Assembly: GCF_003334815.1 (NCBI RefSeq)
Contig: NZ_QOWO01000102.1
DNA: 1,257 bases
Origin: Escherichia coli
Lineage (GTDB): Bacteria; Pseudomonadota; Gammaproteobacteria; Enterobacterales; Enterobacteriaceae
Reading direction: 5' to 3' (one strand)
Shown: one piece after another, positions 1 through 1,248 of the stretch
Layout: every line of letters begins with the position of its first letter
Numbering within the stretch: the first letter of the stretch is position 1
Notes under the pieces: generated by a model
Databases searched by the model: none
Told to the model about the DNA's origin: nothing
The model's input: only the letters and a program-made list of their open reading frames with translations
Position numbers and translations under genes: made by a program

Positions 1-35
1 CTGTCGGCTTCCAGTGTCAGGGCCAGTTTCATCAT
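1..35 (-). CDS. 5' end only (11 codons, [11 protein letters not shown]...) of a downstream small gene that continues past the window edge; its position matches the YeeW-like gene that follows CbtA-family toxins
   Basis: Minus-strand ATG at 35..33 overlaps the toxin TGA stop at 34..32 (ATGA), and the frame stays open to position 1. The YeeW-like assignment comes from the conserved gene order of this cassette, not from the 11 residues themselves. Confidence 0.4.
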
Positions 36-406
36 TTCGCCTCCGGATACTTACCCAGGGTGATATTGTTCACCGTTCTGTAGTTGTGGCGGGTCATCAG
101 GCCTGTTGCCCGGCGAGCCCGGAGAATATCAATGCTGTTGATTAACTGCGACGAGGCTCCTGCGCTGAATCCCGGCTGGTCAGTTCGTACCAGTGCGTAT
201 TTTTCCACGAGAAAGTTCACTGCATCACACAGTGAAATGCCTGCCTCAATATGCTGCTCAATCACGCGTTCATCCACGAACGGTGTGTCATTCAGCGTAA
301 GGCTGTAATGCTGGCCCAGTAGTCGGGAGAGCAGAGTCTGCCAGATGGTGACGGGAGACGGGCAGCACGATACCTCCCGTACATGCGTGTCGGGTAATGT
401 TTTCAT
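32..406 (-). CDS. cbtA: CbtA/YeeV-family toxin of a type IV toxin-antitoxin system (124 aa), the cytoskeleton-targeting toxin family
   Basis: The 124-aa ORF from the track starts MKTLP and ends [11 protein letters not shown]. Its length and long conserved stretches ([80 protein letters not shown]) match the E. coli YeeV/CbtA family as I recall it. Start is ATG 406..404 with an AGGA about 11 nt upstream; stop is TGA 34..32. Which paralogue it is (yeeV, ykfI or ypjF type) cannot be settled without alignment; the length and C-terminus favour yeeV. Confidence 0.9.
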
Positions 407-495: not shown

Positions 496-864
496 TTACT
501 TTTTCGTTTCAGGTGTCGGATAAACAGCCAGATAAACGTAACCACAGGAGCCGAGGGTGTCTGCTTCACAGGTCAGCCCCTTCGCATACAGTGTCACGGT
601 ATGCTGATGGCGGGGATTCAGTTCACCACTGGTGAGCATTAATTTCAGTTGTTTCATCAGCAGCGGAAAGGCCTGGTCCAGAGGGTACGCATCCGCATCT
701 CTGAACCGGCCTCTGATACCGGCACGGTCGGCAAGGTAATGCAACCGGTTACCCTCCTGCACCAGACGGGCGCCGAAACAGGGCGTCACTGTGCAGGGTA
801 GTCCCCACCAGGGATGGTCGTCATTGTCATCGGGATGCGTTGTCCCGGAAAGTGTGTCTGACAC
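496..864 (-). CDS. cbeA: CbeA/YeeU-family type IV antitoxin (122 aa from a GTG start); cognate antitoxin of the CbtA-family toxin
   Basis: The track ORF 496..972 contains the sequence VSDTLSGTT...[36 protein letters not shown]...[19 protein letters not shown], which matches YeeU/CbeA as I recall it. The GTG at 864..862 sits 7 nt after GAGGA (876..872) and gives the family-typical 122 aa; the stop is TAA 498..496. The gene lies 89 nt upstream of the toxin on the same strand, the usual antitoxin-then-toxin order. Confidence 0.88.
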
Positions 865-871
865 GATAAAA

Positions 872-876
872 TCCTC
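872..876 (-). promoter_or_regulatory. Shine-Dalgarno element (GAGGA) for the antitoxin GTG start
   Basis: The minus strand reads ctgtGAGGAttttatcGTG, putting GAGGA 7 nt upstream of the GTG at 864..862. Confidence 0.55.
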
Positions 877-913
877 ACAGAAAATCGGTGAATGATAGTT
901 TAACGATGACGGG

Positions 914-1027
914 TCAGCCGGTGCACAGACCGGCTTCGGTGAAGGTGTATTCGTTGATGAGCAGGACCTCATCCACAGCGGCGTCTGAGCTCAGCCAGTC
1001 GTACTCGTTTTCCGGGTGACGGAACAT
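914..1027 (-). CDS. Hypothetical 37-aa acidic small ORF (MFRHPENEYDWLSSDAAVDEVLLINEYTFTEAGLCTG) between the YeeT-like gene and the antitoxin; not in the supplied track
   Basis: ATG at 1027..1025 overlaps the YeeT-like TGA stop at 1029..1027 (cTGATGttc), and the stop is TGA 916..914. Hand-translated from the sequence. About 28 of 36 third codon positions are G or C and G is enriched at first positions; most codons are E. coli-preferred (CTG, CCG, GAA, AAC, TAC, ACC, GGT, CGT, TTC, ATC). There is no Shine-Dalgarno of its own, so expression would need coupling to the upstream gene. Confidence 0.3.
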   Translation of the reverse strand: MFRHPENEYDWLSSDAAVDEVLLINEYTFTEAGLCTG

Positions 1028-1248
1028 CAGTTCAGGGTGACGCTCATCAGCCGGACATACGGACCAAAACTGTCCTTACGGCGTTCTGCAAACACGGCCA
1101 GCACACCGGGAATATCCTGCACTTCACGACCGGTATACGCTTCAGCACTGCCGTGCCAGCGGTATTTGCCGGTACAGAACGGAAAAAGACGGGATGCCGG
1201 ATGCTGACGGTGAATACGCATGGCTTCGCCACGGGTGATGATTTTCAT
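1027..1248 (-). CDS. yeeT: YeeT-like small protein (DUF987 family, 73 aa) conserved immediately upstream of CbeA/CbtA modules
   Basis: The 73-aa track ORF MKIITRGEAMRIHRQHPASRLFPFCTGKYRWHGSAEAYTGREVQDIPGVLAVFAERRKDSFGPYVRLMSVTLN matches YeeT/YkfH/YpjJ-type proteins as I recall them. It has an ATG at 1248..1246 and a TGA at 1029..1027. Its ribosome-binding site and promoter lie beyond the window edge. Confidence 0.85.
   Translation of the reverse strand: MKIITRGEAMRIHRQHPASRLFPFCTGKYRWHGSAEAYTGREVQDIPGVLAVFAERRKDSFGPYVRLMSVTLN

Follow-up and report, generated by a model that had tools for sequence, protein, structure and literature searches.

The gene of a CbtA-family toxin and the DUF5983 (YeeW-like) gene behind it meet in an ATGA stop-start overlap. 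Overlaps of this kind are retained in many enterobacterial genera, and DUF5983 is probably produced there by termination-reinitiation, so that its synthesis would approximately follow that of the toxin. The stretch under study (the window) comprises 1,257 nucleotides of Escherichia coli DNA, and the reading given here is based on its letters and on their comparison with related loci.

All genes of the window are located on the minus strand. The co-directional block starts with a YeeT-like DUF987 gene (1248..1027, 73 aa; "DUF987 domain-containing protein" in PGAP). It is followed by a gene of the CbeA (YeeU) antitoxin family with a GTG start (864..496, 122 aa; Pfam CbeA_antitoxin PF06154, E 4.5e-53; coordinates after the PGAP annotation of strain 52F4) and, after a spacer of 89 nt, by the CbtA (YeeV) family toxin gene (406..32, 124 aa). 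The toxin domain (PF06755) and the antitoxin domain (PF06154) directly upstream on the same strand are thus both present, as in a CbtA/CbeA type IV module. The DUF5983 gene, recognised as an ORF and by homologous loci, begins at position 35 and is cut by the window edge after its first 11 codons (35..1). The window corresponds to the right-hand block of genes in islands of the CP4-44 type. Among 5,426 complete E. coli genomes 4,935 contain a match, the median being three copies per genome, and the best matches are found in strains 52F4 (99.6 % identity) and E24377A (99.4 %). A search of NCBIfam assigned no family to any of the four products (DUF5983, toxin, antitoxin and YeeT).

Two further frames lie in the upstream part of the block. 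In the mechanical ORF list the antitoxin frame reaches up to the ATG at 972 and has 158 aa. The annotation of CbeA uses the GTG at 864, which gives the 122-aa form with a Pfam domain from residue 18 onwards. Translation of the extension from 864 to 972 (minus strand), which overlaps the deletion remnant described next, is improbable. An unannotated ORF of 37 aa (914..1027, minus strand; MFRHPENEYDW...TFTEAGLCTG) shares one base of its ATG with the TGA of the yeeT-like gene (TGATG). It was considered as a conserved small gene and rejected, being the 3' remnant of a gene of about 215 aa in other loci. In five of the loci collected (L010, 420-1064; L136, L168, L092 and L077) this larger gene, which has no Pfam family, separates the homologues of yeeT and yeeU. 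The yeeT-yeeU gap of the window is as long as 162 nt because its lineage lost most of the 215-aa gene.

At the junction the minus strand reads GGAGGCGAAATGATGAAACTG / GGAGGCGAAATGATGAAA, within the wider stretch CCGGAGGCGAAATGATGAAACTGGCC. Positions 44..27 consist of GGAGG, CGAA, two successive ATG triplets and AAA. The toxin frame ends with GCG (40..38), AAA (37..35) and TGA (34..32), and the first ATG (35..33) forms the ATGA junction (32..35) with this stop. A second ATG (32..30), in frame with the first, overlaps the toxin stop by one nucleotide (TGATG), and a second TGA (31..29) in the toxin frame makes a tandem stop; comparison of the junction types indicates that this second TGA is where toxins of the family originally ended. 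Both known overlap types, −4 and −1, are therefore superimposed in the heptanucleotide ATGATGA. A Shine-Dalgarno (SD)-like GGAGG (44..40) in the last codons of the toxin lies 4 nt before the first and 7 nt before the second ATG, and its duplex with the anti-SD has a calculated energy of −9.5 kcal/mol. Counted from the first ATG, the downstream frame comprises 11 complete codons plus 2 nt up to position 1. The original prediction had given the overlap with just these coordinates (TGA 34..32, ATG 35..33, 11 codons), and the minus strand bears them out. Its wording that stop and start share 4 nt is right for the overlap between the genes, as the term is conventionally used; the two codons themselves span 35..32 and have only 2 nt (34..33) in common. 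The second ATG and the second in-frame TGA were absent from it.

That the upstream gene encodes a toxin, as had been proposed, is confirmed by the match of its residues 1-112 to CbtA_toxin (PF06755, E 9.1e-59). The protein is 100 % identical to WP_069904731.1 of strain 52F4 and 85 % identical to CbtA of K-12, which is known to inhibit FtsZ/MreB and is counteracted by CbeA without binding of the toxin (PMC5624674; PMC5371832). The C-terminal tail of the toxin (residues 113-124; 35..70, minus strand) lies outside the Pfam CbtA model, and it is this part which holds the SD and the overlap. Tails of DUF5983-linked toxins vary between genera and have diverged widely (KYPEAK, KHPGAKQ, KYSEVTR, KYSRMAG, RARREEQSH, PSRGDSPQ and others), with retention of the overlap and of the G-rich motif.

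The identity of the downstream gene is given by loci with 99.4-99.6 % identity to the window, in which the ORF is a DUF5983 gene and hence YeeW-like, as originally supposed. Over 120 nt at the junction the window, 52F4 and E24377A do not differ. In E24377A the ORF is intact with 163 codons and matches Pfam DUF5983_N (PF25638, 3e-31) and the DUF5983 C-terminal domain (PF19419, 3e-21); these domain matches belong to the E24377A homologue, the window itself carrying only residues 1-11. Neither an early closure of the frame nor a lack of relatives was found: it stays open for 64-163 codons in near-identical loci and has many homologues, 25 of which, aligned at full length, share 37 invariant columns.

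Shorter forms of the gene exist as well. The ORF of 52F4 has 67-68 codons, and behind it lie a partial DUF957 gene and IS elements; that of K-12 yeeW ends after 64 codons. The DNA homology of these forms (64-68 aa) to the intact gene stops after about 180 nt and picks up again inside the next gene, DUF957; therefore they are deletion derivatives which keep only the N-terminal domain. The replacement or deletion (52F4 locus 5223-5560; K-12 locus 3441-3700) took the DUF5983 C-terminal domain together with the 5' part of DUF957, and the short YeeW tail ending in STETPATYASPHQLL comes from about 90 nt of unrelated sequence. Segment 1..420 of the window is 100 % identical only to 52F4, thus a truncated form is somewhat more likely for the source of the window.

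The function of the YeeW-like gene had been called poorly defined, and this still holds, since literature as well as family and fold searches yielded no defined function. DUF5983 has no match among the PADLOC defence models, and in PHROGs it matches only phrog_5003, a family of unknown function (E 7e-6). A sequence profile search of the PDB gave nothing credible (E 0.2), and Foldseek with an AlphaFold2 model of pLDDT 66 gave no structural match. A glyoxalase/VOC-like fold has been proposed for the C-terminal domain (bioRxiv 10.1101/2024.01.30.577995), and a further preprint contains a note on an AntiFam region adjoining DUF5983 (bioRxiv 10.64898/2026.06.09.728211). A survey of E. coli toxin-antitoxin (TA) systems found DUF5983 always directly downstream of a CbtA toxin match (PMC10790755).

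Most likely the start codon in use is the second AUG (32..30). Junctions of other clades read GCG AAA, then CAA or CGA, then TGA AAC, with a single ATG (M-K-L...) that overlaps the TGA and aligns with 32..30 of the window; therefore the latter is the conserved start. In the clade of the window a TGA replaces CAA/CGA as the last sense codon, so that the toxin is one codon shorter (124 instead of 125 aa) and the ancestral 4-nt overlap became a 1-nt overlap. Because the codon before the new TGA is AAA, a new in-frame ATG with again a 4-nt overlap arose at 35..33. This first AUG is probably a lineage-specific by-product of the change from CGA/CAA to TGA, whereas the second has the same position in other genera and the better SD spacing (7 versus 4 nt). 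The ATG named in the original prediction exists, but it is probably the secondary one of the two. RefSeq annotates the same junction inconsistently: the second ATG is used by PGAP in 52F4 (5226 of the locus), the first by PGAP in E24377A (5223) and by the K-12 annotation of yeeW (3441). Comparative data favour 32..30, and the choice alters the product by one N-terminal Met only.

For a survey of such junctions CbtA loci were gathered from viral contigs by the toxin protein, from viral contigs by DUF5983, and from species-representative genomes by a degenerate DNA pattern. The pattern represents the toxin motif DILRAR..G.L and sits 60-90 nt upstream of the stop, hence the collection has no bias towards a particular junction. 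After removal of duplicates at least 143 toxin 3' ends remained, and behind at least 46 of them lies a homologue of DUF5983 (tblastn, confirmed by HMM). Among the matches listed, an NTGA overlap is present in 43 of the 46 non-redundant CbtA-to-DUF5983 junctions (33 ATGA, 7 GTGA and 3 TTGA). The three remaining ones are L008 with a frameshifted toxin, L105 with a deleted gene and L173, which has a 13-nt spacer and a GGAG of its own. TGA is the stop of 45/46 DUF5983-linked toxins compared to 52/97 toxins without DUF5983, again among the matches listed. The mean anti-SD pairing in the 20 nt upstream was −7.8 kcal/mol for the former (n = 46) and −1.6 kcal/mol for the latter (n = 97) in the same set of listed matches (Mann-Whitney p = 3e-19, a test that ignores the relatedness of the loci). 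The loci are indeed phylogenetically related to one another, and a few of them come from MAGs of unrelated taxa and are probably contaminants. DUF5983-linked junctions were obtained from at least 14 named genera of the Enterobacterales, including Escherichia, Hafnia, Edwardsiella, Pantoea, Cedecea, Pluralibacter, Rouxiella and Kluyvera as well as Enterobacter, Yokenella, Superficieibacter, Erwinia, Trabulsiella, Leclercia and others. Taken together, the conserved NTGA, the near-exclusive TGA stop and the embedded SD argue for selection acting on the junction.

Some loci of the collection deserve a separate remark. Five CbtA loci nearly identical to those of Escherichia (L060, L088, L095, L101 and L102) are located on MAG contigs of Segatella copri, Clostridiales, Lachnospiraceae and Collinsella and are most simply explained by binning contamination with enterobacterial DNA. 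In three others (L072, L131 and L151) long toxin tails ending in ...GKR/DKR have CGATGA at the stop and are followed by short similar frames (M-x-x-x-K-x-T-x-S-R). All of these frames are shorter than 45 codons and without a match to DUF5983; decay of a former partner or chance may account for them.

The closest described counterpart is the cbtA-yeeW pair of the CP4-44 prophage in K-12 MG1655 (b2005/b2006). It has the same gene order, yeeT, cbeA, cbtA and yeeW, its junction GGAGGCGAAATGATGA is identical to that of the window, and the coding sequences are annotated with a 4-nt overlap (cbtA 2077569..2077943, yeeW 2077940..2078134). K-12 yeeW, a 64-aa deletion form, differs from the window by the absence of four codons (K-L-A-L) behind the two for Met. 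The toxins YkfI (with YafW, CP4-6) and YpjF (with YfjZ, CP4-57) are about 63 % identical to the toxin of the window and have homologous antitoxins and the same upstream gene block. However, they are shorter, lack the SD-bearing tail, end in TGA or TAA without an overlap and are not followed by DUF5983. The genes ykfH and ypjJ were considered as YeeW homologues and dismissed, being YeeT-like DUF987 genes in the K-12 annotation; CP4-6 and CP4-57 are without a DUF5983 gene. Behind YkfI-type toxins that lack DUF5983, about 100 nt later and without overlap, a different conserved gene starting with MQTEAEVLTDHNELICSTSIERIV is found (L004, 2651-2830; also L133, L145, L148 and L167). It exceeds 260 aa in intact loci, and the K-12 pseudogene ykfN is its remnant. 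The TA survey cited above reports DUF5983 directly downstream of CbtA as in the window, but treats it as a candidate partner by adjacency only, without the stop-start overlap, its conservation or the ambiguity of the start codon (PMC10790755).

How the junction may work can be derived from gene pairs with the same architecture. In the ATGA and TGATG pairs of Huber et al. (2019, PMC6728339; 2023, PMC10666635) co-directional genes overlap by −4 or −1 and the SD is part of the upstream gene, as in the window; coupling has been measured for those pairs, whereas the pair described here, in which both overlap types are superimposed, is known from its sequence. Strict or major coupling was observed in four of five native ATGA pairs of E. 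coli, bioBF being uncoupled, and removal of the SD usually reduced reinitiation (PMC6728339). Reinitiation requires that the genes overlap or lie very close together, and among pairs of this type subunits of complexes are overrepresented (PMC10666635). The toxin and DUF5983 would be encoded on one transcript, as there is no space between them for a promoter or a terminator. A promoter-like site was sought on the minus strand within the toxin gene and a terminator-like site between the genes, and neither was found. A ribosome that ends toxin synthesis at the UGA (34..32) would rest on both AUGs (35..33 and 32..30), and its 16S rRNA could pair with the GGAGG (44..40) in the last toxin codons. 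From this position a restart on the spot appears most likely, which would keep the output of DUF5983 roughly in step with the toxin. Translational coupling, which the original prediction had taken as implied by the overlap, is accordingly a plausible reading. A search of the literature on yeeW and DUF5983 revealed no experiment on this gene pair. It counts against the proposal that the downstream gene is a deletion derivative in 52F4 and K-12, and the junction may accordingly serve a decayed gene in the window's copy.

The most serious rival to coupling is independent initiation, according to which the overlap reflects tight packing and GGAGG recruits free 30S subunits whether or not the toxin is translated; it is considered clearly less probable than coupling but well worth attention. 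Masking of the initiation region by a stable conserved RNA structure, to be opened by upstream translation, is not supported: the z-scores of the folds lie between −2.0 and +1.3, each clade shows other structures, local folds at the junction are no better than those of shuffled sequences, and the predicted unpaired probability is 0.48 for the SD-plus-start region versus 0.47 for its surroundings. De novo initiation is therefore possible at this start, the more so as the strong SD lies at 7 nt from the second ATG. E. coli bioBF behaves in this way despite its ATGA overlap (PMC6728339), and the family member with the 13-nt spacer has an SD of its own. On the other hand, an SD by itself needs neither a TGA stop nor an overlap, yet TGA and NTGA dominate the DUF5983-linked junctions listed, and the overlap is retained with GTG and TTG starts although the tails have diverged. 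A weak hairpin in the clade of the window (−8.7 kcal/mol), in which GGAGG pairs with CCCU, also speaks against free access. An inherited junction with no present role, in front of a truncated non-functional remnant or in an essentially silent operon, is regarded as improbable. The exclusive identity of segment 1..420 with 52F4, the similar deletion in K-12 yeeW and the low-level transcription of type IV TA operons in K-12 (PMC5371832) point in this direction. But the window ends at codon 11 of the downstream gene and so displays neither state, the equally close E24377A locus (99.4 %) has the intact 163-aa gene, and even the truncated form encodes the whole DUF5983_N domain behind an intact junction. 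Moreover, a decayed status would leave the working of the junction, when translated, unchanged.

A programmed −1 frameshift at AAA-UGA, yielding a CbtA-DUF5983 fusion beside the separate products, is very improbable. The DUF5983 frame is indeed −1 relative to the toxin with a stop codon in the A site at the shift, and one database protein with matches to CbtA, DUF5983 and ANF00264 is mentioned in a preprint that speculates on frameshifting nearby (bioRxiv 10.64898/2026.06.09.728211). However, a slippery heptamer is missing, for G-GCG-AAA mismatches at the first position after a −1 slip. The last sense codon varies by clade (AAA, CAA, CGA, CAG, CAT, CCA and GGA), so there is no conserved shift site, and the conserved elements are rather the start codon and the SD. 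For the one fusion entry an indel or an assembly error, as in the frameshifted toxin of L008, is the simpler explanation. Least probable of all is a chance ATGA, formed by a last sense codon ending in A before TGA in front of a frame that is no gene. As a bare tetranucleotide ATGA is common and not significant, with 16 occurrences in the window against 11.5 ± 3.2 expected, and an A precedes the stop in 39/97 CbtA-family toxins without DUF5983 among the matches listed. Its significance comes from the context, namely from the long open frame in near-identical loci and from the overlap conserved across genera. Chance is refuted by the two Pfam domains of this frame, by the alignment of its full-length homologues with their invariant columns and by the retention of the overlap in at least 14 genera. 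Coupling by termination-reinitiation remains the preferred explanation.

No spacing between bacterial genes is more common than a stop-start overlap of 4 nt. The overlap in the window is ordinary and already known, as it is contained in the RefSeq annotation of K-12 and of thousands of E. coli genomes, and taken alone it matters little. Apart from the toxin-DUF5983 junction, however, no junction of the E24377A block overlaps, the other spacers there measuring 15-162 nt. For this reason, and because the toxin-DUF5983 junction is conserved in the Enterobacterales, DUF5983 stands out as the candidate functional partner of the widely studied CbtA toxin. Experiments with cbtA expressed from its native 3' end will also express at least the start of the DUF5983 gene. 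More tentatively, and with rather low confidence, DUF5983 may belong to CbtA-type modules as a stoichiometric third component; it could be a further neutraliser, a chaperone or a target-specificity factor, for instance, that binds the toxin co-translationally. If this is true, the conserved NTGA overlap and the SD-bearing toxin tail would serve to deliver one DUF5983 per toxin molecule, and the tail-less toxins of the YkfI and YpjF type would be two-component derivatives.
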